Virus record (IMG/VR): IMGVR_UViG_3300036861_000610
Span: 1-64,000 of that record
Origin: a virus
Length of the DNA: 64,000 nt
Reading direction: 5' to 3' (one strand)
The notes beneath the pieces are model-generated. The model was not told the origin of the DNA. It saw only the letters and a list, made by a program, of their open reading frames with translations, and made no database searches. A program made the position numbers and the translations under genes. Numbering within the stretch: position 1 is the stretch's first letter; every line of letters starts with the position of its first letter. Of this stretch, positions 116 to 58,601 are shown one piece after another.

Positions 116-283
116 TTAGCGGCGAGGGTCTCCGGTTTGGCCTGACCCGCGACAGGTCGAGCAGTTCTGGCCGCCAGTACCCCCGCACCGGCTACACGGG
201 GCGCGCCCCGGGTACTTGCCGGTGCCGCCACAGGTGGTGCAACCAATCTTCCCGCGGCCATTGCAGGTCATACACGTACCCAT
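116..283 (-). CDS. DnaJ-type zinc-ribbon microprotein (ZnF-1)
   Basis: MGTCMTCNGRG..CTTCGGTG..CSRCGGTG..CSTCRGSG: four CxxCxGxG motifs; SD AGGAGG upstream of ATG 283. Confidence 0.8.
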   Translation of the reverse strand: MGTCMTCNGRGKIGCTTCGGTGKYPGRAPCSRCGGTGGQNCSTCRGSGQTGDPRR

Positions 284-374
284 CTGATGAACCCTCCTGG
301 TGATTGACGCTGGTCGCTGCACCCTATCACAGGGGTACGTGGGGGTACGAGGGGTTGCTCTGGCGCTCCGCCTC

Positions 375-403
375 TTGACACCCCTACGTAGGGGTGGAAG
401 AGT
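375..403 (+). promoter_or_regulatory. Putative promoter with palindromic operator in the spacer
   Basis: TTGACA followed by the perfect palindrome ACCCCTACGTAGGGGT (380-395). Confidence 0.6.
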
Positions 404-453
404 GGGAGGAGCATCAGCACCAGCACCACGACTTCAAGTTCCTGGAGGAGCAG

Positions 454-960
454 ATGCCCGCCAAGGGCTCCTACACCGTCGTCAAGCCCAGCGCCGCCGA
501 ACTGAGCGCCGTCAAGCCCTACCTCATTGACAAGATCGTCCGCTGGGCCCAAGACGAAGGCCACTGCGAAACCGTCGAAGACGCCCTCAACACCGTCTTC
601 GGCGCCCGGCCCGCCAACGACTGGCGCGACAGCGACGGCTTCGACTGCTACGGCTTCGACGTCAACGGCTACAACGCCGCAGGCCTCGACGAAAACGGCT
701 ACGACAAGGACGGCTTCGACAGCGGCGGCTTCGGCAAGGACGGCTACAACAAGGAGGGCTACAACTACCAAGGATTCAACGCCCAAGGCTGGGACAAGGA
801 GGGCTACAACAACCGCGGATACAACGCCGAAGGAGTCAACCGCAAAGGCGAACAGGACGGCCGATTCGAGACCTACGTCAACGGCCTGTCCCGCGCCGAG
901 CGCAGCGAACTGATCCGCGTTCTGCGCAACAGCAACAACGACAACGGCAGATTCTGGTAA
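454..960 (+). CDS. Hypothetical protein with G-[FY]-[DN]-x-x pentapeptide repeats
   Basis: SD GGAGGAG before ATG 454; about 14 tandem repeats (GFDCY GFDVN GYNAA ...). Confidence 0.8.
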   Translation: MPAKGSYTVVKPSAAELSAVKPYLIDKIVRWAQDEGHCETVEDALNTVFGARPANDWRDSDGFDCYGFDVNGYNAAGLDENGYDKDGFDSGGFGKDGYNKEGYNYQGFNAQGWDKEGYNNRGYNAEGVNRKGEQDGRFETYVNGLSRAERSELIRVLRNSNNDNGRFW

Positions 961-1016
961 AACCAGCCCGCACCTGCCGTCATCCGCAACACCAACCAGA
1001 AGGAGAAGGAAACGCA

Positions 1017-1490
1017 ATGCCCAATGAGCCCTGGTACGAGAGCAGCAACCCCAGCCGCGTCGCCCGCGGCGGGACCTGGCGCATCTTCCTGTGGATCCTG
1101 GCGTGCTTGGCCTTCATCGGCCTGATCGTTGGCATCGTCTACGGCGTCAAGGTCCTCACCGCACCCGTCCGCGGCGCCGGAGACCAGGAAATCATCGTCA
1201 ACGACGGCCGCAATCGAGTCAACGCCCAGGAATGGTTCGAGAACCAGTACAACCTCATCCTGGCCACTGACCAGAAGCTCGACCAGGCCGCCGCCGACGC
1301 CGCCGCGCACCCCAACGACAGCTTCTACCAGACCAACTACACCGGCCTGAAGAACCGCTGCATCGACATGGTCGCCGCCTACAACGCCGAGGCCCAGAAG
1401 GTCTCGCGCGGAGACTGGCGCTCAGCCGACCTGCCCGCCCACATCAACAACACCGACCCCAGGACCGACTGCAAGGAGACTGCCCGATGA
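1017..1490 (+). CDS. Membrane-anchored hypothetical protein
   Basis: SD; one N-terminal TM helix; ATGA overlap with next gene. Confidence 0.8.
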   Translation: MPNEPWYESSNPSRVARGGTWRIFLWILACLAFIGLIVGIVYGVKVLTAPVRGAGDQEIIVNDGRNRVNAQEWFENQYNLILATDQKLDQAAADAAAHPNDSFYQTNYTGLKNRCIDMVAAYNAEAQKVSRGDWRSADLPAHINNTDPRTDCKETAR

Positions 1491-2020
1491 ACCGCCCCCG
1501 ATTCAACCGCTTCAAGTACGCCGCCGTTGCCCTGCTCGGCGTCGGCCTGCTCGCCTTCACCGCCGGCTGCACCGACTCGTCGAAGCTGCCGCAGAACGAC
1601 CCGCAGGCCAGAGCCAACTACGAGGCCCAAACCAGCAACGTCAAGGTGCCAGTACTCACCGACTCACTGGAACGGCGCAACGTTTCGGAACACCTCACCC
1701 GCAACAACGCCGCTGACCGCATCCGCTACATCTACCTCCTGGCCGACACCGGCGGCATCTACGCCTACTTCGTCATCAAGGGCAAGGTGTCCTCGACTGC
1801 CAGCCAGCTCACACCCACTGACGACTGGGCCAAGCGGTGCGACTCCTGCGGCTGGGAGCTGGTTCAGGGCGCCGGTGACGACGGCACCTTCGGTGGCGAT
1901 GAAGGCGGAATCTACTTCTTCACCGACACCGGCATGGAGGTCCAGTGGAACGGCCGGTGGCTGCTCACTGACCAGCCGCTGGTCATCAAGACCCCCACCC
2001 TGACCCTCACCACCAGCTGA
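1487..2020 (+). CDS. Putative lipoprotein
   Basis: Signal peptide with lipobox-like TAGC. Confidence 0.75.
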   Translation: MNRPRFNRFKYAAVALLGVGLLAFTAGCTDSSKLPQNDPQARANYEAQTSNVKVPVLTDSLERRNVSEHLTRNNAADRIRYIYLLADTGGIYAYFVIKGKVSSTASQLTPTDDWAKRCDSCGWELVQGAGDDGTFGGDEGGIYFFTDTGMEVQWNGRWLLTDQPLVIKTPTLTLTTS

Positions 2021-2034
2021 AGGAGAACAGAACC

Positions 2035-2316
2035 ATGATCAAAACCATCCTCGCATCAGCCGCCATCGCCGCGCTCGCCGCCACTGGCCCCACCAGCTGC
2101 AGCGACAAGCCCGGCCCCCACCGCCAGAACACGAGCACCCAGGACCTGGAGACGTTCGCCAAGTGCGACGACGACAATGGCCACGGGCCCGTGCATCCGT
2201 GTACGACCCGCGACGAGGACGGTAAGTGGATCGTGCACTTGCAGGGCGACAACGACTGCCCGTTCTACACCGTCCAGCCCAAGGATCAGGTCAAGTGCGT
2301 GAACGTGGTCAGGTAG
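2035..2316 (+). CDS. Secreted or lipoprotein hypothetical
   Basis: SD AAGGAG; hydrophobic N-terminus followed by TSC. Confidence 0.7.
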   Translation: MIKTILASAAIAALAATGPTSCSDKPGPHRQNTSTQDLETFAKCDDDNGHGPVHPCTTRDEDGKWIVHLQGDNDCPFYTVQPKDQVKCVNVVR

Positions 2317-2483
2317 GTGCCTGACAAGCCGCACCCGGTGGATCCAGCTTCACCACGCAACCCGCTGGGACGACCGCGGCCGATACACAGCCCGCCACAC
2401 CCAGTAGACCCCAAGCCTCCGAAGAAGTAATCCTCCGGGGCGGTGCCATCAGCACCGCCCCGGACCGCCCCCAGGAGAAACTC

Positions 2484-2810
2484 ATGCCATCCCCCACTCG
2501 CGACGCCCCAGCGTTCATCACCCAGAACACCAGCCGCAAAGTCACCTACACCCGCACCGTTGACACCACCGGCCGGGCCGCCGAGGCCATGGCCAAGCGC
2601 GGCGACATGGACCTTGTGCAGGTCCCCCACACCTTCGAGGTGGAACGCGTCGCCGGCCCCCGCGACACCAACGCCCGCTTCCGCTTCCTGGTCCCAGGCC
2701 AGATGCTCGTCGTTGCCGAAGACGACCTGCCCATCATCGAGGCGCTCATCATCGCCATGAACGCCGAGCGGCAGGCCACCGAAGAAGGCGACGGAGGTGT
2801 GGCTTCATGA
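2484..2810 (+). CDS. Hypothetical protein
   Basis: SD AGGAG; coupled to next ORF. Confidence 0.7.
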   Translation: MPSPTRDAPAFITQNTSRKVTYTRTVDTTGRAAEAMAKRGDMDLVQVPHTFEVERVAGPRDTNARFRFLVPGQMLVVAEDDLPIIEALIIAMNAERQATEEGDGGVAS

Positions 2811-3220
2811 TCAGCCTGATCAAGGCCGCCGTAGCACGGGTCAAGAAGAATTCTGGCTTTAATCTCACGGAAGCCCTTAAGCTTCCTGTCGAGGACCTCG
2901 CCTATGTCGTACTTCTCGACGCGAAGCGCAGGCACGCCCAGCTGGTTTTCAGCTTCCTTATCATGGGCAGTGGCCTTCTGACGCTGGTGTTTGATCTTAT
3001 CGGTCCCGCAGTCCTTGCTACTGCCGGTTGCTACCTCATCGCGGGCCTTTTCCTCCTCGATGTCATCGTCGTTTGGCTGAACCTGCGCCGGGGGCGCCGC
3101 TTCGTGCGGAAAGCTATCGAACGCAATAAGAGGCGCCAGACCATCGAGTATGACAAGGAGCAGAAGGCTGAGGCGTGGACCGCAGAGTTGATGTCGAGAT
3201 GGAACAGGACGCAGCCGTGA
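2807..3220 (+). CDS. Membrane protein
   Basis: Two hydrophobic helices; SD GGAGG; ATGA overlap. Confidence 0.7.
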   Translation: MISLIKAAVARVKKNSGFNLTEALKLPVEDLAYVVLLDAKRRHAQLVFSFLIMGSGLLTLVFDLIGPAVLATAGCYLIAGLFLLDVIVVWLNLRRGRRFVRKAIERNKRRQTIEYDKEQKAEAWTAELMSRWNRTQP

Positions 3221-4032
3221 GCAACGACAAAAACCAAAGAGAGACAGCATCCCCCGTGACAACTGAAGACTTCAGATCCGTCAGCGAAACTACCGAGGTT
3301 GTCAACGCAGAACCTATCGATGCGCCCGAGGTGGCAGGGCCGCCGGTCGACGACGTCATCACCATCGACCGGAAAATCGGCGCCACCCGCGCTGCTGTCA
3401 CCCTCACCTCCGGCCTCACCGTCACTGGGGCCTGGGCAGCCGGCGACTCCCAAGCCCTGCGGCGCCTCATCGAAAGCCTCATCGAAGTAACCGACGGCGC
3501 CACCGCCCGCGTCGACCGCGGAGTCAGGCGCATCGCCGACCTGGAAGATGCGCTGCGCGCAGTCCGAACCCAGCTCCGGGTCGCCCTCGACGAGGTTCAC
3601 GACCTGCATACCGAACGGGAAGTTATTCGACACGACCTTGGTCACCAGCTGGCTGAACAGCTGGGCGAAATCACCACCCTTCGCGCCGAGATCGACGGCG
3701 CCCGCGCCATAGCCATGCTGTCCCCCGACAAGGCGGAGCTGGTACGTGAACGGGACCAGCTCCGCAGCGCCCTTGCTACCGAGAAGCGTCGCGCCGATAC
3801 AGCTGTGGCCGCCTACCGGGAGCTGGAGGAACGGACCTCGGTTGACATGGCCATCGCTGAAGCTGATCGTGCCTACAACCTGAGGCGACAGGCTCTCGCC
3901 GCCGTGGAAACAGCCGAGGAAGCATTTGAGGACAAGTTGTGGAAGAAAGGCGGACGGTACCTGAGGCTCGCGAACACGTGGATCGCCTTGCTCAACGCCG
4001 GCAGCGAGCCGCTGGAGGCACCACCGGAATGA
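3217..4032 (+). CDS. Coiled-coil hypothetical protein
   Basis: GTGA overlap; heptad-rich C-terminal half. Confidence 0.7.
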   Translation: MSNDKNQRETASPVTTEDFRSVSETTEVVNAEPIDAPEVAGPPVDDVITIDRKIGATRAAVTLTSGLTVTGAWAAGDSQALRRLIESLIEVTDGATARVDRGVRRIADLEDALRAVRTQLRVALDEVHDLHTEREVIRHDLGHQLAEQLGEITTLRAEIDGARAIAMLSPDKAELVRERDQLRSALATEKRRADTAVAAYRELEERTSVDMAIAEADRAYNLRRQALAAVETAEEAFEDKLWKKGGRYLRLANTWIALLNAGSEPLEAPPE

Positions 4033-4694
4033 ATACCCGGGTTGTTGGACGGGTAACTCAACCAGCTCCCCAGGTCTGGATATACGACAAGCAGACAAAA
4101 AGTTGGATGGAGCCGGAGGCGGTTACCACACCCCCACTGGAGCAGATTGGAGAAGCCTTGAAGGCGATAGACCGAGAGCAGGCAGGTCTGGTGCAGGCCA
4201 TGCGGCTGGCGCGCGCTCGCGGCTTTTCCTGGGCGAAGATCGGAGTCATCCTGGGCGTCAGCCGCCAGGCCGCTCAGCAGCGTTTCGGGTTCGTAGACGA
4301 TGAGCTGCGCCGCCAAGGCAAGGAGGTGGTCGATGAACCAGAACCGGCCGTTGAGGCAACTTCCACGCCGCAGCCGCAGCCGCCTAAACCGGTCCACGCA
4401 GTAGCGCCCGAACCTCAATTCGACTTCTCGGCGATGGCCGGTATGACTGATGACGAGATTATCGCCATGGCTAAGAACCTGCCGATCGAGGCGAAGCTCT
4501 ATGACCCTTACCTCAGGGCACTGCGGGAAGCTATCGTCGTGACACTGCACAAACGCGGCATGGGCCAGGCGAAGATCGCGGCGATCATCCACAAATCTGC
4601 GCAGCGCGTGTCACAGATCATTGGTGACTACTACACCCGCAAGGAGCGGGAGTGGCAGGAGGAACGCGCTCGGTGGGGACAGGAGGGGGCGTAA
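4029..4694 (+). CDS. DNA-binding protein with two HTH motifs
   Basis: SWAKIGVILGVSRQAAQQRF and GQAKIAAIIHKSAQRVSQII. Confidence 0.75.
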   Translation: MNTRVVGRVTQPAPQVWIYDKQTKSWMEPEAVTTPPLEQIGEALKAIDREQAGLVQAMRLARARGFSWAKIGVILGVSRQAAQQRFGFVDDELRRQGKEVVDEPEPAVEATSTPQPQPPKPVHAVAPEPQFDFSAMAGMTDDEIIAMAKNLPIEAKLYDPYLRALREAIVVTLHKRGMGQAKIAAIIHKSAQRVSQIIGDYYTRKEREWQEERARWGQEGA

Positions 4695-4697
4695 AAC

Positions 4698-4982
4698 ATG
4701 AGCATGAGCATGTTCAGTAGACGGGCCAGTCTTACCAACCCCCAGTACTGTCAGGCATGGCGTGATTTGACAGCTGAAGAGGTTGTCACCTTCACTGCGC
4801 CGAAGCCTCGGGCCACCTGCCATCTCAACAAGGGGCACTTCGGTGACCACGAGGACAAGATCCTGGGGGTGGCGTGGAACGTCGCCGGCCGTCGGGAGCC
4901 AGTGTACTGGGCCGCCGAGCGTGATAAGGCCATCGAAAACAACATGCAGGATACCAAGGAGAAGGACGAGGCGACGTCGTGA
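4698..4982 (+). CDS. Hypothetical protein
   Basis: SD GGAGG; CxxxxGHxGxH motif. Confidence 0.65.
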   Translation: MSMSMFSRRASLTNPQYCQAWRDLTAEEVVTFTAPKPRATCHLNKGHFGDHEDKILGVAWNVAGRREPVYWAAERDKAIENNMQDTKEKDEATS

Positions 4983-11892: not shown

Positions 11893-12708
11893 ATGAAAAT
11901 ACTGCTTGCCGGCGACACCCATGGCAACATCGTCCACTGCCAGTACCTCATCAGAACCGCGCTCGCCAAAGAGTGCGACTCGGTGTTTATCCTGGGCGAC
12001 TTCGGCTACTGGGAGCACCAGAAGGCTGGGGTGAAGTTCCTCGACCGGCTCAACGAGTACGCCTCCGCCCTCGGCATGTTGGTGTACTTCCTCGACGGCA
12101 ACCACGACAAGACCTCGCTGTTGATGGAAAAGTATGGCGACCTGCGTAATGAGGAAGGCTTCGTCATTGTCCGGCCGAACGTTCTGTATGCCCCTCGCGG
12201 TCATCGGTGGACCTGGGACCATGGGGTACGGTTCATCGCGCTCGGGGGCGCCTACAGCGTTGATAAGGACTGGCGCCTCCAGGAGGAGGAGCTGCACCCC
12301 GGCAAGTACGGAGGCCCGGAGACTCTGTGGTTTCCAGAGGAAGAGATGTCCGACGAGGACATGGATCGCTTCCTGGAAGATCGCACATCAGTGGATGTCA
12401 TGCTCGCGCACGACAAGCCGCGTTCGTCAAACCCTCGATGGAACCGTAAAGACTTCTTAGAATGCCTGCCAAACCAGGACCGACTGCAGCGCGCCATGCG
12501 AGCTTTGACGCCCAAGGCGTTTTTCCATGGTCACCTGCACTTCTTCTACACCGATGAGGTCTGGTACGGCCATGACGGAATCACCCGAGACATGGCCACC
12601 ACGAAAGTCATGGGCCTGCTGTGTAACCCGGAGGCCGGCGACTCGACCTACGTGAACAAGACCTTGTCCTGGCAAGTTTTCGACACCGCAGCAGCGTGGT
12701 GGCGGTAG
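11893..12708 (+). CDS. Calcineurin-like metallophosphoesterase
   Basis: GDTHG, GDFG, GNHD, AHD, HGHLH motifs. Confidence 0.9.
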   Translation: MKILLAGDTHGNIVHCQYLIRTALAKECDSVFILGDFGYWEHQKAGVKFLDRLNEYASALGMLVYFLDGNHDKTSLLMEKYGDLRNEEGFVIVRPNVLYAPRGHRWTWDHGVRFIALGGAYSVDKDWRLQEEELHPGKYGGPETLWFPEEEMSDEDMDRFLEDRTSVDVMLAHDKPRSSNPRWNRKDFLECLPNQDRLQRAMRALTPKAFFHGHLHFFYTDEVWYGHDGITRDMATTKVMGLLCNPEAGDSTYVNKTLSWQVFDTAAAWWR

Positions 12709-12726
12709 AGGAAAAGGAACACCAAC

Positions 12727-12903
12727 ATGGCCAAGAGGGCTTGCAGCAACTGTAGTGGCCAGGGAACTATCCCTTTCACCTGCGGTAAATGCCGAGGAAC
12801 TGGAGAATTTGGTGACCATAGACAATGCACTGACTGCGGCGGTTCCGGTAAATGGCGCATCACCTGCCAGGTGTGTAGGGGAACGGGACAAGTAAATGCC
12901 TGA
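12727..12903 (+). CDS. DnaJ-type zinc-ribbon microprotein (ZnF-2)
   Basis: MAKRACSNCSGQG..CGKCRGTG..CTDCGGSG..CQVCRGTG; SD AGGA; below the ORF-track cutoff. Confidence 0.8.
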   Translation: MAKRACSNCSGQGTIPFTCGKCRGTGEFGDHRQCTDCGGSGKWRITCQVCRGTGQVNA

Positions 12904-13006
12904 CAAGGACGGTAACGAGACCGCTGACGAGGCGAAGCTCCGCGAAATGGTGCGCCGCGAAGAGGAGCGACGCGCCCGTGAGAAGCGAGAAAAGGGCCAA
13001 GAGTAA
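12896..13006 (+). CDS. Short charged helical peptide
   Basis: MPDKDGNETADEAKLREMVRREEERRAREKREKGQE; TAATG coupling to next gene. Confidence 0.55.
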   Translation: MPDKDGNETADEAKLREMVRREEERRAREKREKGQE

Positions 13007-13194
13007 TGACCCATACCCAGTGTCCAAAATGCAAGGGTGCCTGCAACTTCTCTGTTCTGTGCGGCCCGTGCGGCGGAACCGGCAACACGGCCTCGGGTAA
13101 TGGTCACGGCCAGAAGAAATGTACCCAGTGTGGTGGCTCGGGACGCTGGTGGAAGGTCTGCGACCGGTGCGGCGGCACAGGTTACCTGCAATAA
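13006..13194 (+). CDS. DnaJ-type zinc-ribbon microprotein (ZnF-3)
   Basis: CPKCKG..CGPCGGTG..CTQCGGSG..CDRCGGTG. Confidence 0.8.
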   Translation: MTHTQCPKCKGACNFSVLCGPCGGTGNTASGNGHGQKKCTQCGGSGRWWKVCDRCGGTGYLQ

Positions 13195-13206
13195 CGATGA
13201 GATCGA

Positions 13207-13350
13207 ATGGCTACCTGCAGCAGATGTAACGGGAATGGACACCTCGTCCAGCGCTGCCTCGTCTGCCTTGGCAGCGGTGTTGTGAACCGTGGCCCGAAGG
13301 AAGGTAAGGAGAAGTGCACCCAGTGCGGCGGCACCGGTAACACCAAGTAA
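13207..13350 (+). CDS. DnaJ-type zinc-ribbon microprotein (ZnF-4, three motifs)
   Basis: MATCSRCNGNG..CLVCLGSG..CTQCGGTG. Confidence 0.7.
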   Translation: MATCSRCNGNGHLVQRCLVCLGSGVVNRGPKEGKEKCTQCGGTGNTK

Positions 13351-13378
13351 ACCCAACGGAAGAAGGAGAACGATCACG

Positions 13379-13558
13379 ATGGCTGTCAACTGCAACAACT
13401 GCTCCGGCACTGGTCGGAAGTCCAAGCCCTGTACTGGCCCATGTCGAGGCAGTGGCGTGTTCTTCGAGGGCAAGACCAAGCGCACCTGCGGTACCTGCAG
13501 CGGCACTGGCATCCTCTGGGAGTCGTGCGGCACCTGCAGCGGTACCGGTAAGCGCTAA
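13379..13558 (+). CDS. DnaJ-type zinc-ribbon microprotein (ZnF-5)
   Basis: SD AAGGAG; CNNCSGTG..CTGPCRGSG..CGTCSGTG..CGTCSGTG. Confidence 0.8.
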   Translation: MAVNCNNCSGTGRKSKPCTGPCRGSGVFFEGKTKRTCGTCSGTGILWESCGTCSGTGKR

Positions 13559-15929: not shown

Positions 15930-16118
15930 ATGGCTGAAACTGTTCGCTGCAGCGCCTGCAACGGATCGGGGCGCATTACCTGCAACGGCAACGGTGGGGG
16001 CTCCGGCGTGTACTACCACGCCGGCAAAAAGGAAGCCGTTCGTTGCTCAAAATGTGCCGGCTCCGGCAAGACGAGCTGCTCCTTCTGCGGCGGCACCGGC
16101 GAGATGCCCAAGAGGTAG
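15930..16118 (+). CDS. DnaJ-type zinc-ribbon microprotein (ZnF-6)
   Basis: CSACNGSG..CNGNGGGSG (degenerate)..CSKCAGSG..CSFCGGTG; SD GAGGA. Confidence 0.8.
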   Translation: MAETVRCSACNGSGRITCNGNGGGSGVYYHAGKKEAVRCSKCAGSGKTSCSFCGGTGEMPKR

Positions 16119-17901: not shown

Positions 17902-17991
17902 CCCCCTCGGCCGGCGGTGCGGCACACTCAGCAGCACGCCGCACCGCCGGCCACCACCACCAAAGATCAACCCCGGAAAGGAAACACCCCC

Positions 17992-18885
17992 GTGCGCAAG
18001 CACCACCTGGCAGCAGTTTTTGCTGCCACCATCGTGGCTGGCCTGTTTGGCTTTGCTGCACCCGCCCAAGCCGAAGAGCCCACCGCGGAGTCAAGGACGG
18101 TTGTCACCGACCTCGTCGACCGCGCCGATCACGGTCACGGAACTCCGCCGCCGGCAACCTGGGCCCTGGACACCTTCACCCGAACCGTCGAAATCACCGG
18201 CGGCCCCGCGTACGTGCTCCCGCAGCCCTCGCTCACAACAACCGAGGAACCAGTCCCAGCCGATATCGACGAGCAAGTTGCTGAGGCGAAGAAGCAGCCC
18301 GACCCGGAGTTCAACGTCTGCGATCTGGTCAAGCGATTCCACCTGCGGTGGAAGTACCACGCTGTGATCACCGACAAGGGCATTTTCAAGACCCTGGCCG
18401 GCGCAGCTTTGTCGCCCAACGCGGGCGCCGCCCTGCTCGGTGATGTTCCTGGCACGTTGGTCGGTGGCTTCACGGCCGACTTCACCGCGCCGGCCCACTG
18501 GTGCACGTTCAACGACACCAAGCTGAACGGCAAGACCATCGACGGCGACGACGCCCCAGCCACCTCGAAGTGGCTGGAGTGCCTGTTTGACAAGTTCGAC
18601 GGCAGCCCGATCAACGACGACTGGGTCTGGACGTACAAGACCTGCTCCGAGCAGTGGGTCGACTCGGCCGACAACAACGATGGTCAGGATGAGGGCGCTG
18701 GTGACATTACCGGCAAGCCGTGCCCGACCACCCCGGCGCCCACCACCCAGGCACCGGTTCTCACCGCTCAGCTGCCCGTCACAGGCGCATCGGTTACCTC
18801 TCCTGCGGTTCTGGGCGCAGTCCTGGTAGTTGTCGGGGCAGCCCTTCTGGCTGGCCTCGCACTGACCCGGCGTCGTCGGGCATAG
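17992..18885 (+). CDS. LPXTG cell-wall-anchored surface protein
   Basis: Signal peptide ending AQA; C-terminal LPVTG, hydrophobic helix and RRRR tail. Confidence 0.88.
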   Translation: MRKHHLAAVFAATIVAGLFGFAAPAQAEEPTAESRTVVTDLVDRADHGHGTPPPATWALDTFTRTVEITGGPAYVLPQPSLTTTEEPVPADIDEQVAEAKKQPDPEFNVCDLVKRFHLRWKYHAVITDKGIFKTLAGAALSPNAGAALLGDVPGTLVGGFTADFTAPAHWCTFNDTKLNGKTIDGDDAPATSKWLECLFDKFDGSPINDDWVWTYKTCSEQWVDSADNNDGQDEGAGDITGKPCPTTPAPTTQAPVLTAQLPVTGASVTSPAVLGAVLVVVGAALLAGLALTRRRRA

Positions 18886-18888
18886 CAA

Positions 18889-19068
18889 GTGGCCGTGGCC
18901 GAAGTCAAACGCACGTGTCCTGCATGTGGAGGGCGTACCACCCGGGCATGTGAGACGTGCTACGGAACAGGGACCATTCCGCAAGGGGGTAGGCGAATTA
19001 CCTGCCCCAACTGTCGGGGCAGCAGACAGGTTACGTGCCTTACTTGCTACGGCAGCGGAACACAGTAG
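18889..19068 (+). CDS. DnaJ-type zinc-ribbon microprotein (ZnF-7)
   Basis: CPACGG..CETCYGTG..CPNCRGS..CLTCYGSG; below the ORF-track cutoff. Confidence 0.75.
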   Translation: MAVAEVKRTCPACGGRTTRACETCYGTGTIPQGGRRITCPNCRGSRQVTCLTCYGSGTQ

Positions 19069-20517: not shown

Positions 20518-20759
20518 AAGTCTCCATCTCCGTCATCGCCCGGTACGCCCGCGGCCGACAGGTCCTGATGGTCAAGGCCAGCGACACCCAGAAACCCCAT
20601 CGCGTGGGCGTCGCTCCACTCCTTGACGAAGACGACGACGAGCAGTACGAGGCCGCCGTAGCCGCGGCCGTACAGCAGCTGATGGACAAGAGGACAGCCC
20701 TTCATGGGAGACGTAAGAAGAGACGGCAAGAAGTTGGTGCTGTCAGTAACGACAGCTGA
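20514..20759 (+). CDS. Hypothetical protein
   Basis: SD GAGG; ATGA overlap. Confidence 0.6.
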   Translation: MKVSISVIARYARGRQVLMVKASDTQKPHRVGVAPLLDEDDDEQYEAAVAAAVQQLMDKRTALHGRRKKRRQEVGAVSNDS

Positions 20760-21096
20760 TTGCGAGCTGCAGACCTTTCGGTCCGGAGGATCGGGAGGAC
20801 AAAATCAAAACAAGCGCGACACTGGGGTCAGGTTCATTCATAGAGAATCTGGCGCCCGCGGTGAAGCTCGGGATGAACGATCTCAGCTACAAAACAAGAA
20901 GCTTGCGTGGCGGCGCATGTATGAGACCAAGGAGTTCCAGCTGTGGCTGCGCCGCACTCTCGGTCAAGACGCAGCACGTGAGGCCGAAGAGGCCCGACAT
21001 GTTTCCAATTTTCACGTGCCGGCCGACGAGCTGAAGATCGAAGTGAAGGTCTACGGTCGCTGGGTAGAGGTCGGTGAAGACCTCCACCAGGCATGA
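20704..21096 (+). CDS. Peptide chain release factor-like protein (stand-alone RF-1/GGQ domain)
   Basis: TFRSGGSGGQNQNKRDTGVRFIH...ERSQLQNK. Confidence 0.88.
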   Translation: MGDVRRDGKKLVLSVTTADCELQTFRSGGSGGQNQNKRDTGVRFIHRESGARGEARDERSQLQNKKLAWRRMYETKEFQLWLRRTLGQDAAREAEEARHVSNFHVPADELKIEVKVYGRWVEVGEDLHQA

Positions 21097-21264
21097 TCAG
21101 CAGCGGCCAGACCCTCCACATTTTGAACACCTCGACACCCCTGAACCACCACAGCTAGTGCAGGGCTTCCCGTTGCGCGTCTTCGACCCTCCGCAGGTAC
21201 CGCAGTTGACGAAGCAGCCTCCGTTGCACTGTGGGCATGTCGACTGAGTCTTGTCCTTGGACAC
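21097..21264 (-). CDS. DnaJ-type zinc-ribbon microprotein (ZnF-8)
   Basis: SD AGGAG; CPQCNG..CGTCGGS..CTSCGGSG..CSKCGGSG. Confidence 0.8.
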   Translation of the reverse strand: MSKDKTQSTCPQCNGGCFVNCGTCGGSKTRNGKPCTSCGGSGVSRCSKCGGSGRC

Positions 21265-29938: not shown

Positions 29939-30112
29939 TCAGCGTTGGAGCCCTGAACCACCGCAGTCGTAGCACTGTCCGCCACCCCTGCCGTTGCAGG
30001 TTCGACATGTCTGCATGACGCCGTCGATCTTCTCCTGGCCAGTCGTATTGCAAGTCCCACACGGAATTTTGCCGTAACCCTTGCATCGTCGACAGAGTTC
30101 GCCCTTGGCCAT
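29939..30112 (-). CDS. DnaJ-type zinc-ribbon microprotein (ZnF-9)
   Basis: CRRCKGYG..CGTCNTTG..CRTCNGRG..CYDCGGSG. Confidence 0.8.
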   Translation of the reverse strand: MAKGELCRRCKGYGKIPCGTCNTTGQEKIDGVMQTCRTCNGRGGGQCYDCGGSGLQR

Positions 30113-45232: not shown

Positions 45233-45406
45233 TCAGACCGTGCCTTTACCACCACAGTTGCCGCAAGCCTTGTGGGCTCGACCACTGCCGCCACAGCCGC
45301 CGCAGGTTGTGCGACTACTTCCACTCCCAACCTGGCCCTGACCTCTGCAGGCGGGACAGGTGTCCATCTTGCCGCCAGAACCGCCGCATGCACTACACGT
45401 AGCCAT
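45233..45406 (-). CDS. DnaJ-type zinc-ribbon microprotein (ZnF-10)
   Basis: CSACGGSG..CPACRGQG..CGGCGGSG..CGNCGGKG. Confidence 0.8.
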   Translation of the reverse strand: MATCSACGGSGGKMDTCPACRGQGQVGSGSSRTTCGGCGGSGRAHKACGNCGGKGTV

Positions 45407-48190: not shown

Positions 48191-48352
48191 CTACCCCGTT
48201 TTTCCTGAGCCGCGGCAGGTGCCACAAGTCTTACGACCGCCACCACCGCAGGTACCACAGCGAAGAGCATCCGTTCGGCCCGAACGGCCGGTACCACTAC
48301 AGGTGCCGCACGTAACCGTCCCAACACCGCCACAGGTGCCACAGTTTGCCAC
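48191..48352 (-). CDS. DnaJ-type zinc-ribbon microprotein (ZnF-11)
   Basis: MANCGTCGGVG..CGTCSGTG..CGTCGGGG..CGTCRGSG; SD GAGGAG. Confidence 0.8.
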   Translation of the reverse strand: MANCGTCGGVGTVTCGTCSGTGRSGRTDALRCGTCGGGGRKTCGTCRGSGKTG

Positions 48353-50822: not shown

Positions 50823-50835
50823 ATTGCTCCTTGCG

Positions 50836-50911
50836 TGGATCCGACGGGATTCGAACCCGTACCTCTGCAAACCGTTAGCTGCTTATGCTCTCGCCATTAA
50901 GCTACGGACCC
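50836..50911 (-). ncRNA. Ala-acceptor tRNA-like RNA with aberrant anticodon arm
   Basis: GGGTCCG/CGGATCC-A (G3:U70); normal D and T arms; 8-nt loop. Confidence 0.65.
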
Positions 50912-50922: not shown

Positions 50923-51087
50923 CTACCTTGAACCGCACCCACAGGAAATCTGCCCTGAGCCACCGCAGGTTCCGCAGGTTCTCTGCAGACCGCCGCTGGC
51001 GCGTATGAAGCCTTTACCATCACATGCGGCGCACTTGGTGTACCCATTGCCGCGACAGTTTGGGCACACCGGCTTCTTGTCTGCCAC
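50923..51087 (-). CDS. DnaJ-type zinc-ribbon microprotein (ZnF-12)
   Basis: CPNCRGNG..CAACDGKG..CGTCGGSG..CGC; SD AAGGA. Confidence 0.8.
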   Translation of the reverse strand: MADKKPVCPNCRGNGYTKCAACDGKGFIRASGGLQRTCGTCGGSGQISCGCGSR

Positions 51088-53657: not shown

Positions 53658-53660
53658 GTG

Positions 53661-53945
53661 CTACCAGTAGGCCTTTTCGGGGTCGAAGTCCGCCCATAGG
53701 ATCTCAGTCTTGACGTGGGCGTAGTTGCGCAGCTGCACCAGCTCCTTGTGGGCGACGATGCAGTCGTCGCAGATCCAGACCACCAGATCGGGGGCACTCA
53801 TCGTCGGGTCCCAGATCCGGCTGCCGTAGTTGCCGTGGGCCGCGAAGAGCAGCCCGCGGTTGGGGGCTTTGGAGTCATCCTCGTAGTCTTCGGCGAAGTT
53901 TCCGAATGCCGACTCCAGGGTCTTGAGGCATTTGAAGCAGTTCAC
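53661..53945 (-). CDS. Small zinc-binding protein, leaderless after tRNA-Gln
   Basis: CFKC...GNYGSRIWD...ICDDC; GTG 2 nt after discriminator. Confidence 0.7.
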   Translation of the reverse strand: MNCFKCLKTLESAFGNFAEDYEDDSKAPNRGLLFAAHGNYGSRIWDPTMSAPDLVVWICDDCIVAHKELVQLRNYAHVKTEILWADFDPEKAYW

Positions 53946-53946
53946 G

Positions 53947-54017
53947 CTCGGGCACCTAGGTTCGAACTAGGACTCCTGCATCCAAAGTACAGTGGGCTCC
54001 CATTACCCCATGCCCGA
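53947..54017 (-). tRNA. tRNA-Gln(TTG)
   Basis: Loop CT-TTG-GA. Confidence 0.88.
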
Positions 54018-54021
54018 AAGG

Positions 54022-54092
54022 AACCGAGTACGGGAATCGAACCCGTTCGATCAGTTTGGAAGACTGAGATGCAGCCATCACATTCACTCGGC
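54022..54092 (-). tRNA. tRNA-Gly(TCC)
   Basis: Loop CT-TCC-AA. Confidence 0.88.
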
Positions 54093-54247
54093 TTGGCCTG
54101 GGCGGCGAGGAACAAGTTCCCGACGCCTTGCATGTCCCCACCCTATGGGCGCGGCCCAGGCTACGAAACTGACGTTGGGCTCCCTAGGTCAGTCAACCAG
54201 GATGAGCAGCCTGGTCCCGGGGAAGAACCGGGGGGCGGCATTGCCCG

Positions 54248-54321
54248 TAGAGCGTACGGGGTTCGAACCCGTATTCTCCGCCGTGAGAGGGCGGCGAGAT
54301 GACCAATTACTCCAACGCTCC
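54248..54321 (-). tRNA. tRNA-Glu(CTC)
   Basis: Loop CT-CTC-AC. Confidence 0.9.
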
Positions 54322-54465
54322 ATTGTTGCCCCCGCCGCAGGGTTTTTGTGTCGGCCTTGAGCCTTTGATCGCGGCCGATCTCCCTGCGCGGGGGCGTTCA
54401 CTGGTCAGGAATGTCTAGGGACGTCACTCTAGGCATTAAGGCGCCTGCCAGCTGTTCGTGAGTAC

Positions 54466-55488
54466 CTAGATCAGGTACAGGTACCGGGTGCCGGCGATCA
54501 GCTTCCGGTTGATCGACGTCGACTGGACGTAGATGTCGAAGTCGGGGTTGTGGTTCGGGCTCACCCGCACGTTCATGTCGGGCAGACCCACCATCTGACG
54601 CGCGTCCCGGCCGCTGTACACCTTGTGGTCCTTCTTGCCGACCACCATGATGTCCTTCGTCGCCTGGATTTCTTCACGCTTCATCAGCTGGTAGAACCCG
54701 CGGCCGGCCTGGTAGTTGTGGCCGCACGCCTTGGTGAACTCGTCGATGCGCGAGTCAGTTGGCACTGGCACCAGGACATAGGTGCCTTTTGCCATCGGCG
54801 TGAGGCCGGCCTGGGCGATGGTCTGGACGTTTACTGCGTCGGCGCCGGTGGAGAACAGGTTCCGGGTGGACCGGACGCCGGCTCGACGGGCCTGCATGTA
54901 GTTCTCGGTGGCGTCTCGGACGCGGTCTCCAGCTTCCCCGACGCCAGCTGCCGAGTTGGGGTTCCAGATCTCGATGTTGCCGGCGGAGAAGCCGAACTGT
55001 TTGGCCTCACGCATGCCCATGGCGTTGGGCACCAGTGCCGCAACGGTCCAATGGTCTTTGAGGCCGGCGAGACGCGCCTTGAGGGTGGCCGGTCGGTTAA
55101 CGCTGCGGTTTTCTTCGCCGTCGGTCAGGACGAAGACCAGGAACGAGTGGTCGCCGTAGCGTTCTGGGGTCTCCCCCAGGTGGTCCAGGGCCTGCAGTGT
55201 GGCGTCGATGAACGCGGTGTTGCCAAACGGTGTGTAGAAGCTGCTGATGCTCGGCAGCCGCAGCACATCCTTGTCCCAGACGACGCATTCGATGCGGTTG
55301 GGGTCGGCGAATGTCCACACCGAGATCCGGGTCTCCTGGTCCAATTCCTTGGACCGTCGGGCCAGGTGTTCAATCTGGCCGTCGGCGACTTTGATCAGGT
55401 CCTTTTTGTGCGGCGTCATCGAGGTCGATGCGTCTAGCACGAAGGCGATGTGGTTGATGATGTTGGCAATTGGTGCTGTCGCTGGCAT
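54466..55488 (-). CDS. von Willebrand factor A domain protein
   Basis: MIDAS DASTSM; T; LTDGEEN. Confidence 0.85.
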   Translation of the reverse strand: MPATAPIANIINHIAFVLDASTSMTPHKKDLIKVADGQIEHLARRSKELDQETRISVWTFADPNRIECVVWDKDVLRLPSISSFYTPFGNTAFIDATLQALDHLGETPERYGDHSFLVFVLTDGEENRSVNRPATLKARLAGLKDHWTVAALVPNAMGMREAKQFGFSAGNIEIWNPNSAAGVGEAGDRVRDATENYMQARRAGVRSTRNLFSTGADAVNVQTIAQAGLTPMAKGTYVLVPVPTDSRIDEFTKACGHNYQAGRGFYQLMKREEIQATKDIMVVGKKDHKVYSGRDARQMVGLPDMNVRVSPNHNPDFDIYVQSTSINRKLIAGTRYLYLI

Positions 55489-55674
55489 CTATCACTCCAG
55501 GAGCTGTTGTGGATGTTGGTCCACATCCTGCTCTTGGGGTACGACAAGTTTTGTGCGCCGTGCGGCAAGGGAATGGCCGCAGTCCTTGTTAACCGCCAGC
55601 GTGGCTCGCCGCCTGGTCCTGCGGGACTTCGGCGCGGCTTCAATCGCGAGCTTCTGCTGCTTTACGGCACAACG

Positions 55675-55747
55675 TGTCCCCGGGCGGATTCGAACCGCCG
55701 TACTCCGACTTTTCAGGCCGGCGCTAAACCATCTCAGCTACAGGAAC
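55675..55747 (-). tRNA. tRNA-Phe(GAA)
   Basis: Loop CT-GAA-AA. Confidence 0.9.
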
Positions 55748-55787
55748 GTGTGCTGGATGGGTCTAGCCACCCAGACTTTTGAGGGAT

Positions 55788-55964
55788 TCAATTTGAAACG
55801 GTGCCTCGGCCGCCGCATCGGTTGCAAGGAACCGTTCCGGGTCCACCGCATCCTGTGCATTTGGTGATGTTGTCTTTTCCGCTTCCGGTGACGCCTCTTC
55901 CGCTACACGCAGAACATGTGATGGAGCCGGAGCCGGAACAGGTGGGACAAGACCGAGTAGGCAT
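55788..55964 (-). CDS. DnaJ-type zinc-ribbon microprotein (ZnF-13)
   Basis: CPTCSGSG..CSACSGRG..CTGCGGPG..CNRCGGRG. Confidence 0.8.
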   Translation of the reverse strand: MPTRSCPTCSGSGSITCSACSGRGVTGSGKDNITKCTGCGGPGTVPCNRCGGRGTVSN

Positions 55965-55993
55965 GATCTTCTTTCGTTTCGGGGCGGTGAATA

Positions 55994-56066
55994 AGCCTCC
56001 CCGAGGAATCAAACCTCGAATCTCCAGCCATATAAAGACTGGCGCTCTGTCGATGAGCTAGGAGGC
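55994..56066 (-). tRNA. Atypical tRNA (loop TT-TAT-AT; identity uncertain)
   Basis: Cloverleaf with 1-nt linker, 6-bp anticodon stem, T loop TTTGATT, U73. Confidence 0.55.
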
Positions 56067-56171
56067 ATGGGCCACAGTAGATGGGTCAGATCCAGGCCGT
56101 CGCCCGCTACTACCCGCGCAACGCTGCGGTTCCATTGCGAACCATGTACATTGGCTTTCCCTTTTGGTGCG

Positions 56172-56244
56172 TGGAGCTACGGGGATTCGAACCCCGGACC
56201 TTCCGCATGCGAAACGGATGCTCTACCAGCTGAGCTATAACCCC
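56172..56244 (-). tRNA. tRNA-Ala(CGC)
   Basis: G3:U70; loop TT-CGC-AT. Confidence 0.9.
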
Positions 56245-56466
56245 ATGGAACCGGCGGGGGCAGGGTTACCCGCCCTGAGGCTTCCCCACGCCGGGCTTTT
56301 GTGATCCGTCTTTCTGGCCCCTCAGGACGGATCAACCGAGAGCATCTCCAGCCGCACGAAGGGCTGCTGCCAGTGAGGAAAGACTGTGCTGGGATCCCGG
56401 GAGACCACGGAGAGGCAACCGGATGAGCAGCCCTTTGCGGCCCAGGGAAGGACCGGGATCCCAGAG

Positions 56467-56539
56467 TGGAGATGAACGGATTCGAACCGATGACCTTCCG
56501 CCTGCCAGACGGATGCTCTACCAGCTGAGCTACATCCCC
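56467..56539 (-). tRNA. tRNA-Ala(GGC)
   Basis: G3:U70; loop CT-GGC-AG. Confidence 0.9.
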
Positions 56540-56731
56540 AAAGGTGCCCGAGGTGGGGTGGGCTAATCCCGGTCCTACTCCCAGCTGCTGGACCTGACCC
56601 ATTGGGCAATGGGTCAACCTCTGCCGGACCCGTCTGTTGCTCCGGCCTTTCAGAAAGGGGCTTTCACCCTTACCGCAGGAGGCTTTTCTTGAAGCTTGCT
56701 TCGCTCGCGCTCAGCGTGCCTGCTATGCCTG

Positions 56732-56804
56732 TCGGGCACCCCGGGGTCGAACCGGGTGTCTTCAGTTCCCAAAACTGACGGGTTAACCGTCTCCCTCGTG
56801 CCCG
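56732..56804 (-). tRNA. tRNA-Pro(TGG)
   Basis: Loop TT-TGG-GA. Confidence 0.88.
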
Positions 56805-57081
56805 AGAGTTAGAGACTGCCCTGGCCGGCAACCGATGGCCCGTCGCTCCAACGACTATGCGGAGGAATTAGCGGTCCTCACCACGACGCGCGTTGGCCAC
56901 AACGGATCGACCGGCCAGGGCATGTATCTATGAATGTGCTCCTGGCCCGACGATGCCGCCGGGGGCCGTCACCCGAAGGTGCCGACATTCATTGGCCTTG
57001 CCAGGCCAGGAACATCTACACACATGCTGTCCACTGTGAAGTTCTCAAGAAACACTTCCCCGGTTTCCCGGTTATTTCGCG

Positions 57082-57153
57082 CGCCGCCGCAAGGATTCGA
57101 ACCCTGACTAACCGGGTTGGAGCCGGTTATGCTTGCCGTTACATCACAGCGAC
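57082..57153 (-). tRNA. tRNA-Trp(CCA)
   Basis: Loop CT-CCA-AC; G73. Confidence 0.88.
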
Positions 57154-57539
57154 TCAATGTTCTTTTGTGTCTTCCATGCACGCATGTACTCAGCCTTTTT
57201 AGCTCGACATGGAGCACACTTGCAGTTTCTTTTGCCGGAGATCCCACCTCCATGTTCAACGGATCGCATCATGGTGGTTTTTGCTCGATGATGCTCTCCG
57301 CACAGCAGCTGACACTTGGTCAACTCGGGAAGCAGAACTTTGTCTCCTCGGTTCCACATCTTAGCTATTGAGAATTTTTTAGTTGTGGGATTAATGTGAT
57401 CAAACTCTAGGTCTTCTGTCGCATCACACTCGGCACACTTGTTACCCAGGATTTGCTTTAGTCGGCCGATAACCTGCTCATACCGAATTTGATCATATTT
57501 AGTTCTATTCCACTCCTTGGCCCACCACTCGCGGTCCAA
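57144..57539 (-). CDS. HNH endonuclease
   Basis: KCAEC....LEFDHINP..K...ELTKCQLLC..HH..KT; start uncertain. Confidence 0.8.
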   Translation of the reverse strand: MDREWWAKEWNRTKYDQIRYEQVIGRLKQILGNKCAECDATEDLEFDHINPTTKKFSIAKMWNRGDKVLLPELTKCQLLCGEHHRAKTTMMRSVEHGGGISGKRNCKCAPCRAKKAEYMRAWKTQKNIESL

Positions 57540-57563
57540 GGAACAATTCCCCCCCTCTACGAA

Positions 57564-57599
57564 AGAAGCCGCCCTGTCCGGGTTCCGGGGGGCGGCTTC
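57564..57599 (-). terminator. Intrinsic terminator
   Basis: GAAGCCGCCC...GGGCGGCTTC followed by TTT on the minus strand. Confidence 0.6.
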
Positions 57600-57965
57600 A
57601 AGATCCTTTGACCTTGAGCTACCCGTTGCCCGGGTTGCGCTGCTCATCGGCGTAACCGCCAAGCCGAACGAATCGGGGCATGGTGACAGCACCGGACAGC
57701 GACACTGTGTGCCACTGCTTCGAGGTGCTGCGCGTCATGTCCGTCTCCTGGTTGGTTGGTCTGGCGTTGAGCTTAGGGGCTTCTCCTTCAGCTCGGCAAC
57801 CCCCGGTGGTTCTGGGCGTTTCTCGCTGACATGGAGAACCGTACCCGGACCCCGGGGTACGGCGCAAGAGGTTTCCCCAAGATCTTTTACTGGCGGCCTC
57901 CGGAGCCAACTGACCAGGAGTTTCGTCAGGTAGCGCCGGCCGCCAACCAGGACAACGGGACAGGA

Positions 57966-58202
57966 TCACAGCTTCTTCGCTGGCTCGTTGGAGGTCGCCC
58001 AGACCGCGGCCCCAGTTCCCAGAGCGGTGAGGACCCCGAGCACGATCTCCCACACAGTGACCTTGCCGTCGGCTAGTGCGGCAACGATGGCCACCCCCAG
58101 GGAGCCGGTCACCGCAACCACAGCCTTGGCGATCGTCTGCTCCCGGGCCGGAGGTACCTGAAGGAAAAGGGTCCCCTCGACCGGGGGCTGGGAGCCTGTC
58201 AT
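57966..58202 (-). CDS. Holin-like two-TM membrane protein
   Basis: KAVVAV.GSLGVAIVAAL.DG.VT..E..LGVLTALG.GAAVWA..N. Confidence 0.6.
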   Translation of the reverse strand: MTGSQPPVEGTLFLQVPPAREQTIAKAVVAVTGSLGVAIVAALADGKVTVWEIVLGVLTALGTGAAVWATSNEPAKKL

Positions 58203-58266
58203 TCATTCATTGTGCCCCCGATGATGTCCATAGAGAAGAGCCCCGGTTTCCCGGAGCCCTTGCCTA

Positions 58267-58440
58267 TCAGACCTGACCAGAGCCGCCGCAGCGGGTGCAG
58301 GTCGGTGTGCCTTGACCATTGCAGGTGCCGCATTTCCTCTTTCCACCATCGAGCCAGCCGCTTCCCCCACAGCCTCGACAGGAGAGAAAACCCAGTCCGC
58401 CGCAGGTGCCACAGGTGCCCTTCTCGTCCTTTTTTGCCAC
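58267..58440 (-). CDS. DnaJ-type zinc-ribbon microprotein (ZnF-14)
   Basis: CGTCGGLG..CRGCGGSG..CGTCNGQG..CTRCGGSG; SD GGAGG. Confidence 0.8.
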   Translation of the reverse strand: MAKKDEKGTCGTCGGLGFLSCRGCGGSGWLDGGKRKCGTCNGQGTPTCTRCGGSGQV

Positions 58441-58601
58441 TAGCTGAGCCTCCCGCTTCCCCCACAGCTACTGCACGACGTCAGGGTGGAACCGTTGCAG
58501 CCAGAGCACGGCTTACCTCCGACGCGCCCGGCGCCCTTGCATTTGTCGCAGGTCGTCCGGCCGCTGCCAACACACACCGGACACGGTTTCTTGTTTGCCA
58601 T
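58440..58601 (-). CDS. DnaJ-type zinc-ribbon microprotein (ZnF-15)
   Basis: CPVCVGSG..CDKCKGAG..CSGCNGS..CSSCGGSG; SD GGAGG. Confidence 0.8.
   Translation of the reverse strand: MANKKPCPVCVGSGRTTCDKCKGAGRVGGKPCSGCNGSTLTSCSSCGGSGRLS

Follow-up and report, generated by a model that had tools for sequence, protein, structure and literature searches.

A dispersed family of seventeen stand-alone DnaJ-type cysteine-rich mini-proteins in the genome of an uncultured, probably actinobacterial phage

Why would a phage carry, scattered over its genome, more than a dozen stand-alone copies of one small cysteine-rich domain, are these copies genes at all, and what might they do for it? The question is raised by positions 1-64000 of the 147,889-bp IMG/VR virus record IMGVR_UViG_3300036861_000610 (hereafter the window, i.e. 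the whole stretch of DNA, 64,000 nucleotides, that was analysed; results described as genome-wide cover the full record). An earlier note, made from the letters of the window, had pointed to 15 very short open reading frames (ORFs), dispersed over both strands and built almost entirely from CxxCxGxG motifs (from here on knuckles). We recovered all of them in place (six on the plus and nine on the minus strand) and found their number to be understated: a family profile hidden Markov model (HMM), built from the alignment of 17 mini-protein peptides, hits 17 places genome-wide and nothing else (E 2e-16 to 1e-9, none of them with an internal stop), the two additional copies lying at genome positions 119534-119686 (-) and 143737-143910 (-). 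A six-frame scan located 49 exact CxxCxGxG motifs in the window, every one of them within the 15 short open frames, and at the DNA level a degenerate form of the motif occurs 56 times genome-wide (versus 7 times for a reversed control pattern). The 15 window copies are the following (lengths in amino acids, aa; E-values from the family HMM; SD, Shine-Dalgarno sequence):

c01, 116-283, minus strand: 55 aa, four exact knuckles, ATG start, GGAGG SD, E 1.4e-12; adjoins the left genome end
c02, 12727-12903, plus strand: 58 aa, four knuckles, E 2.3e-16; first of a four-gene tandem cluster, 18 nt after a Metallophos gene
c03, 13006-13194, plus strand: 62 aa, three exact knuckles and one CxxCxGxC variant, E 3.2e-13
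c04, 13207-13350, plus strand: 47 aa, three knuckles only, possibly degenerate, E 4.1e-10
c05, 13379-13558, plus strand: 59 aa, AAGGAG SD, E 3.7e-12; a called gene in public collections
c06, 15930-16118, plus strand: 62 aa, second knuckle degenerate (7 Cys), E 4.9e-15
c07, 18889-19068, plus strand: 59 aa, GTG start 3 nt past the stop of a conserved 322-aa gene, E 2.2e-15
c08, 21097-21264, minus strand: 55 aa, GTG start, AGGAG SD, E 1.7e-10; between an RF-1-domain gene and the primase-polymerase gene
c09, 29939-30112, minus strand: 57 aa, E 1.8e-15; strong terminator-like hairpin ~200 nt downstream
c10, 45233-45406, minus strand: 57 aa, four knuckles, E 1.2e-10; within the tRNA array
c11, 48191-48352, minus strand: 53 aa, GTG start, GAGGAG SD, E 3.3e-10; flanked directly by same-strand tRNA-Ser and tRNA-Pro
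c12, 50923-51087, minus strand: 54 aa, last knuckle degenerate (CxC), E 3.1e-12; stop 11 nt from the next tRNA gene
c13, 55788-55964, minus strand: 58 aa, four knuckles, E 5.8e-15; flanked by same-strand tRNA-Ile and tRNA-Phe
c14, 58267-58440, minus strand: 57 aa, GTG start overlapping the c15 stop by one base (TAGTG), E 5.7e-13
c15, 58440-58601, minus strand: 53 aa, GGAGGG SD, E 7.4e-15; 104 nt downstream of a same-strand Ro60/TROVE gene

The mini-proteins (47-62 aa) follow the alignment consensus M-A-x(0-6)-[CxxCxGxG]-x(3-5)-[CxxCxGxG]-x(6-12)-[CxxCxGxG]-x(3-5)-[CxxCxGxG]-x(0-7). Nine of the 17 carry four exact CxxCxGxG repeats, the others having two or three exact ones together with CxxC or near-motif variants (c06, c12 and c16 each possess one degenerate knuckle, and c04 is without the fourth). 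An Ala at position 2 is shared by 13 copies, and a GGAG-like SD lies 5-12 nt upstream of at least 14 of the 17, in line with the claim that most of the ORFs have such a sequence. The Cys/Gly spacing, which had been described as fixed, proved near-invariant as far as the scaffold itself is concerned, but the distances between knuckles 1 and 2 and between knuckles 3 and 4 range over 3-5 residues and are thus not strictly fixed. The composition is skewed (Cys 14%, Gly 23%, Asp plus Glu 3.6% of residues), and all 17 copies are strongly basic (net charge +5 to +7, pI 10.3-12). All of them fall into gaps of a crude codon-based gene call, and they are nearly always co-directional with their neighbours.

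Whether these frames are genes can be judged from the pattern of their divergence. Eight columns of the 17-copy alignment never vary and another five are conserved to 90% or more, all of them Cys or Gly with the exception of the start Met. The synonymous differences between paralogs are saturated (proportion of synonymous differences, pS, 0.67-0.83), while the scaffold columns are 94-100% conserved; the mean identity elsewhere is 17% (the residues of the turn and flanks do differ between copies, as the earlier note had it), and the whole-gene ratio of non-synonymous to synonymous divergence (dN/dS) is 0.24-0.45. Because synonymous sites are saturated and the Cys/Gly scaffold is near-invariant, we consider that selection acts on the translated product, and that the 17 ORFs are, on this sequence evidence, real, translated genes of a single paralogous family.

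That the ORFs are instead untranslated (chance frames, the signature of a DNA-level repeat, or the by-product of an antisense feature) is scarcely credible, given 17 independent frames that agree in start context and in the order of their four knuckles and that all stop immediately after the last one, third-codon positions that are randomised with Cys and Gly kept, significant matches to solved cysteine-rich domains (CRDs, see below), and a lack of any flanking DNA motif common to the copies beyond the SD (in a search for a mobile-cassette signature). A DNA-level repeat is excluded by the contrast between scaffold and synonymous sites, the flanks sharing the SD only. The candidate antisense feature, a 358-codon frame opposite the four-gene cluster (window 12457-13533, minus strand), is probably spurious, as its GC by codon position (0.65/0.55/0.57) is non-coding-like (~0.62/0.47/0.75 in real genes). 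Two observations would fit untranslated frames. Firstly, codon-usage log-odds did not discriminate the mini-ORF frames, a score that is uninformative here because Cys is rare in the training genes. Secondly, automatic gene calls miss most copies: of 10 exact peptides looked up in a 15-billion-protein collection, only 2 occur there as called genes, and c02, c03, c04 and c07 were passed over by the gene caller on a near-identical Logan contig, which agrees with the remark that several of the ORFs were absent from the program-made list. Gene callers routinely miss micro-proteins, and with most of the 17 missed, roughly one in ten accessory genes would go unseen. Scans for promoters and terminators revealed no enrichment at the mini-genes, so that their supposed location at operon ends was not borne out; a motif common to the genome end and the flank of c11 occurs only twice and is not significant.

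What these genes encode was approached through profiles and structure prediction. Among Pfam families the commonest top match is DnaJ_CXXCXGXG (PF00684), followed by BSD2_CRD, Anti-TRAP, DUF5351 and GRXCR1-2_C, all below curated thresholds (PF25436, the BSD2-type CRD, scores 14-22.5 bits versus a 27-bit cut-off, and PF15777, Anti-TRAP, at best 19.5 versus 32 bits), and two copies are without any Pfam match. Searched against all PDB sequences, the 17-copy profile finds the CRDs of J-domain proteins (1exk, E 1.9e-10; 2ctt, 6.3e-9; 1nlt, 1.6e-6; 7zhs, 2.7e-6), among them those of human DNAJA3 (2ctt), Ydj1 and DNAJA2, and it also matches Anti-TRAP (3lcz, E 7e-5) and, over the full length, BSD2 (6ekb, E 6.6e-4). 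An AlphaFold2 model of c02 (from the 17-sequence alignment, mean pLDDT 90) depicts four short strands arranged as a long hairpin (strand pairs 3-5/55-57 and 14-18/42-46) with no helix predicted. With this model Foldseek ranks BSD2 first (6ekb, E 3e-4), then DNAJA3 and DnaJ 1exk (probability 0.98, TM 0.51), and only half of the model superposes on Anti-TRAP 2bx9 (one knuckle pair, rmsd 0.7 Å over 31 residues). The BFVD library of viral structures yields DnaJ/CR-type proteins from giant viruses and from phages, stand-alone ones of 50-90 residues among them. Taken together, these results uphold the assignment to the DnaJ CRD architecture and predicted fold at the superfamily level, below the Pfam thresholds, and each ORF is, going by the profile and the c02 model, a complete, compact and stand-alone DnaJ-type CRD with a predicted beta-hairpin fold. 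From homology to the solved relatives we infer that two Zn(Cys)4 centres, one made by the first and fourth knuckle and the other by the second and third, would hold this fold together.

The comparison with characterised proteins places the family more precisely. The CRD of DnaJ (E. coli DnaJ 121-209, 1exk, PF00684) has four CxxCxGxG repeats in the same order as the phage proteins, but in comparison to class A J-domain proteins the latter are without J domain, G/F region and C-terminal client-binding domains (no copy has a J-domain Pfam match, and the proteins consist of knuckles only), and their linkers are of 3-5, 6-12 and 3-5 residues (versus roughly 6-14 in the aligned DnaJ proteins). The best structural match, BSD2 (6ekb/6ekc), is like the phage copies a J-domain-less, stand-alone four-knuckle CRD, and acts by direct binding to its client RbcL8 (title of 6ekc). 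BSD2 and its relatives are, however, plastid proteins of eukaryotes that carry transit peptides and have longer loops, whereas the phage copies are smaller, uniformly basic and, unlike BSD2, without Rubisco or a comparable known client. Anti-TRAP (RtpA of Bacillus; 2bx9, 3lcz, 2zp9) is a stand-alone DnaJ-CRD-derived zinc protein of 53 aa and a pure protein inhibitor that binds TRAP. It has one zinc site (two knuckles), whereas the phage proteins are built from four knuckles and are predicted to lack helices. The C-terminal helix of Anti-TRAP mediates trimer and dodecamer formation. Knuckle micro-proteins of the same type exist as single copies in other phages (a 52-aa protein of RB49, gp131/PHROG 3931 of Felix O1, a 62-aa 'heat shock protein' of Bacillus phage Goe2 and proteins of Gordonia phages); these appear among the BFVD structural matches, and PHROG 3931 weakly matches c02 and c05. 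Compared to these, the present genome holds 17 copies, each a soluble, predicted two-zinc unit. The statement that the fold is normally embedded in larger proteins needs correcting, since stand-alone CRD-like mini-proteins are well known (Anti-TRAP, BSD2) and abundant as single genes. The nearest described expanded zinc-finger microproteome, likened here by description only, is that of Haloferax volcanii, with 43-49 genes for C(P)XCG zinc-finger micro-proteins (PMC10716476, PMC11241148, PMC6562870). It resembles the phage family in comprising many CxxCG-type proteins of less than 70 aa per genome, mostly uncharacterised and often missed by annotation, and differs from it in belonging to an archaeal genome of 4 Mb, in having mostly two motifs and one zinc, and in being heterogeneous rather than one four-knuckle CRD family.

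As regards distribution, a search of 5.8 billion proteins returned 54 small (52-109 aa) stand-alone relatives, none of them close, and a profile search run exhaustively over 1.84 billion cluster representatives gave 13,402 proteins at E up to 1e-3, of which the best are long multi-repeat proteins. Look-alikes in the ESM-Atlas form clusters of hypothetical or CR-type proteins (55-114 aa) from bacteria and archaea. Single-copy homologues were encountered in a mobile island (with integrase, PIN, ATPase, pentapeptide protein and RmuC), beside the relaxase of a conjugative element, in a bacterial chromosome and in an actinophage-like contig of 71% GC. More than 120 IMG/VR contigs contain adjacent knuckle pairs, mostly in acidic proteins of 100-300 aa with 5-10 knuckles. 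Searches of GenBank phages with single mini-proteins (tblastn) produced three weak Brevibacillus phage matches or none, for which low-complexity filtering is the probable cause. The stand-alone CRD mini-protein is thus a known type, widespread as single copies in phages, conjugative elements, bacteria and archaea.

What sets the present genome apart is the copy number. Five large relatives (terminase identity 41-79%) show motif counts at background level and give no match to the HMM, a four-knuckle mini-ORF is present in none of 79 terminase-related loci, and cluster C1 mycobacteriophage McGee (which has Ro60, RF-1 and a tRNA array) likewise shows background motif counts only. When all of IMG/VR was scanned for a two-knuckle pattern anchored at the start, 98 stretches had one match each, and the present genome has five; among 25 other viral records with at least one such protein the maximum is ~7 loci, in a 483-kb virus. 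Set against every other viral record examined, this copy number is exceptional.

One smaller parallel was nonetheless found, in an unrelated 41-kb viral contig (IMGVR_UViG_3300048927_000355, 67.6% GC) with nine back-to-back mini-genes (L225:2437-3895, plus strand; 47-65 aa each, with overlapping stop and start codons). Its scaffold is a variant one (the third knuckle is a CxxC without GxG), its nine copies are basic as well (net charge +3 to +8), one pair is 77% identical, and its neighbours are a 714-aa ORF and a Mu-F-like head gene carrying an intein-like segment. In the literature we found no paper on such a phage expansion. The earlier note's view that the expansion was undescribed accordingly stands as far as publications go and needs amending as regards uniqueness, and the 17-fold, highly diverged, lineage-specific phage expansion is new as far as we have found, with this nine-copy array as a parallel in public data.

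The next question is where in the genome the copies reside and how long they persist there. Homologues of the gene upstream of c07 led us to two syntenic contigs, L306 (28 kb) and L307 (70-80% nucleotide identity), neither of which has a mini-ORF. Block mapping against these contigs placed c02-c05, c06, c07 and c08 all in indel or replacement slots between conserved genes: c06 lies within an 878-nt insertion relative to L307, the c07 slot in L306 holds other genes, and the c08 slot (between the RF-1-domain and primase-polymerase genes) is occupied in L306 by four small genes. Among the latter is the Thoeris inhibitor Tad3 (L306:14617-14940, minus strand; PF25185, E 2.5e-30), just downstream of the primase-polymerase gene; in the window the same slot has c08 and an 83-aa ORF, with no Tad3. 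Since the copies compared sit in variable slots and are absent from the closest sampled relatives, the mini-genes behave as lineage-specific, fast-turnover accessory genes of the non-structural arm and the tRNA array, and 17 copies here versus none in close relatives mark a very fast-evolving gene family. The description of copies lying between tRNAs is accurate for c11, c12 and c13 and applies loosely to c10. There are no young duplicates among the 17 (maximum pairwise identity 56%). Tandem duplication is the likelier engine of the expansion, because a four-gene tandem cluster is present here and the nine-gene array includes the 77%-identical pair.

Several genes next to the copies deserve mention on their own. 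Numerous homologues of the 322-aa protein gene upstream of c07 (window 17917-18885, plus strand) occur in metagenomes, with identities of up to 80% and in some cases the source label 'LPXTG-motif cell wall-anchored protein'; the gene is preceded by an M23 peptidase/LysM gene in the phage and its relatives. The RF-1-domain protein (peptidyl-tRNA-hydrolase-like, E 2.1e-15; window 20704-21096, plus strand) is kept in the syntenic relatives and is annotated in cluster C1 mycobacteriophages too. A Ro60/TROVE and vWA protein is encoded at window 58706-60316 (minus strand; TROVE E 1.9e-22) and c15 and c14 come directly after it; its nearest IMG/VR relative (L313, 43% identity) has no mini-gene beside it.

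What, then, might the mini-proteins do? As they have no J domain they are not DnaK co-chaperones, and an enzymatic role is not plausible in ~55 residues of knuckles. Our best guess, which we put forward tentatively and to which we would not give quite an even chance, is that the copies are small binders or inhibitors of host macromolecules, an analogy that draws on the direct protein binding of Anti-TRAP and BSD2 (2zp9, Anti-TRAP:TRAP; 6ekc, BSD2:RbcL8, as titled in the PDB), on the hypervariable surface and on the accessory-slot locations. Each copy would serve as a rigid mini-scaffold without enzymatic activity. It would engage a macromolecule of the host (or of the phage) in a stoichiometric complex, using the variable parts of its surface (the knuckle x positions, the loop at the tip between the second and third knuckle, and the short tails), much as Anti-TRAP blocks TRAP and BSD2 caps Rubisco large subunits, and the paralogs would form a repertoire of small inhibitors or modulators for host take-over or counter-defence. 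The variable accessory-slot position lends weak support to this idea, which the earlier note had named among the possible functions, next to chaperone decoys and a zinc or redox sink. If the copies are specific binders, they would show a phage diversifying a minimal zinc-stapled scaffold against many host targets and would offer a compact frame of 50-60 residues for inhibitor design.

A bolder and rather unlikely extension is that the 17 hyper-diverged, zinc-stapled mini-scaffolds constitute a natural binder library, all on one 55-residue frame, in which each member would neutralise a different host protein (e.g. a defence sensor or effector). New members would originate from tandem duplication, of the kind seen in the four-gene cluster at 12.7-13.6 kb and in the nine-gene array of the unrelated contig, and would later spread to accessory slots; were this true, the family would represent a novel type of modular phage protein for counter-defence or host take-over, as well as a ready scaffold for small inhibitors.

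A number of observations weigh against the binder reading. No evidence of positive selection was obtained, the whole-gene dN/dS values all being below 1, and the only young pair, which belongs to the other expanded phage, gives 0.45. No copy reaches any Pfam gathering threshold (PF00684 scores at best 25.8 versus 32.7 bits), and searches of Pfam and PHROGs link none to any known family of inhibitors. The argument from the Tad3 slot is circumstantial and concerns one copy. By nearest-neighbour analysis, unrelated mini-CRDs from metagenomes are as similar to the paralogs as the paralogs are to one another, so that in-genome duplication is inseparable from repeated acquisition. Furthermore, the net charge is near-uniform in the 17 copies (those of the nine-gene array being likewise basic), which implies a shared constraint rather than 17 unrelated targets. 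This positive charge, on which the earlier note is silent, speaks at least as strongly for a common property; it may balance the two negatively charged Zn(Cys)4 centres or may reflect nucleic-acid binding.

The latter possibility leads to the rival that survives best, although we regard it as unlikely: the mini-proteins could be small basic nucleic-acid-binding zinc knuckles, i.e. RNA/DNA chaperones or factors binding tRNA, Y-RNA or mRNA, which would act on the phage tRNA array, the Ro60/Y-RNA system or DNA, much like the knuckles of retroviral nucleocapsids or the zinc-ribbon proteins of ribosomes. Besides the basic charge of the copies in both expansions (other viral CxxCxGxG proteins are mostly acidic), their surroundings speak for it, as 6 of the 17 are within or directly beside the 51-gene tRNA array, c11, c12 and c13 lie between tRNA genes with which they must be co-transcribed, and c15 and c14 follow Ro60/TROVE in one transcription direction. 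Each Zn(Cys)4 centre, however, carries a formal charge of -2, which leaves the holo-protein with only ~+1 to +3. Moreover, 11 copies are far from RNA genes, and McGee has Ro60, RF-1 and a tRNA array yet no such proteins. DnaJ-type CRDs are, to our knowledge, protein-binding, and none of the matched solved relatives is a nucleic-acid complex of a CRD. If the copies do bind RNA or DNA, a protein component would be added to the rich RNA biology of this phage (51 tRNAs, Ro60).

More doubtful still is a role as J-domain-less assembly chaperones or holdases, one per phage client, either BSD2-like or akin to plant DnaJ-like zinc-finger proteins with disulfide-isomerase activity. It would fit the rank of BSD2 as best structural and full-length profile match, the precedent of the plant DnaJ-like zinc-finger proteins as a diversified family with client-specific roles (PMC4806229), the translational coupling of c07 to the conserved 322-aa gene and the position of the nine-gene array in a head module, just upstream of the Mu-F-like gene. 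The relatives, however, keep the neighbours (M23 peptidase, 322-aa protein, RF-1 and primase-polymerase) without the mini-proteins, which are therefore not obligate helpers of these neighbours; the contexts vary from copy to copy and from phage to phage; and 17 dedicated chaperones here with none in the relatives would be hard to explain.

A collective metal or redox buffer (zinc sequestration or delivery by 34 predicted Zn sites, or absorption of oxidants) is improbable: the Cys and Gly contents (14% and 23%) and the many copies with no conserved surface would suit it, but dosage suffices for such a function (one strongly expressed gene would do, rather than 17 diverged sequences), the CxxCxGxG geometry and the hairpin indicate structural zinc sites and not metallothionein-type clusters, and the relatives do without the mini-proteins.

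The genomic setting in which these genes occur is that of a complete record (CheckV completeness 100%, GC 61.6%). The window encodes a T4-type large terminase, a primase-polymerase/D5 helicase, the Ro60/TROVE-vWA protein, a DUF932 protein and an alpha/beta hydrolase. Among cultured phages, those of Arthrobacter, Mycobacterium, Microbacterium and Gordonia have the primase-polymerases most similar to that of the window (~32% identity), and megablast with 8 kb of the window detected no GenBank phage relative at the DNA level. Based on these homologues, the GC content and the LPXTG-type names of neighbour-gene homologues, a host within the Actinomycetota appears likely, and the genome is, judging from such sequence comparisons, that of a distant, uncultured, probably actinobacterial phage.

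Positions 33142-57153 of the window carry 51 predicted tRNA genes, nearly all on the minus strand. The array includes one CTA anticodon (reading UAG) and a call with a four-base anticodon (50835-50911), and a plus-strand 'SeC' call is doubtful; the stop codons of confident genes are ordinary (TGA 56, TAG 32, TAA 24). An exact 106-bp inverted repeat joins the ends of the record (window 1-106 and the last ~120 bases, the right-hand copy beginning 13 bases from the genome end) and may be either a genuine terminal inverted repeat or a product of faulty assembly. Outside the window, the structural arm contains a single frame of 6,684 codons (genome 67831-87882, plus strand) with a coding-like GC profile.

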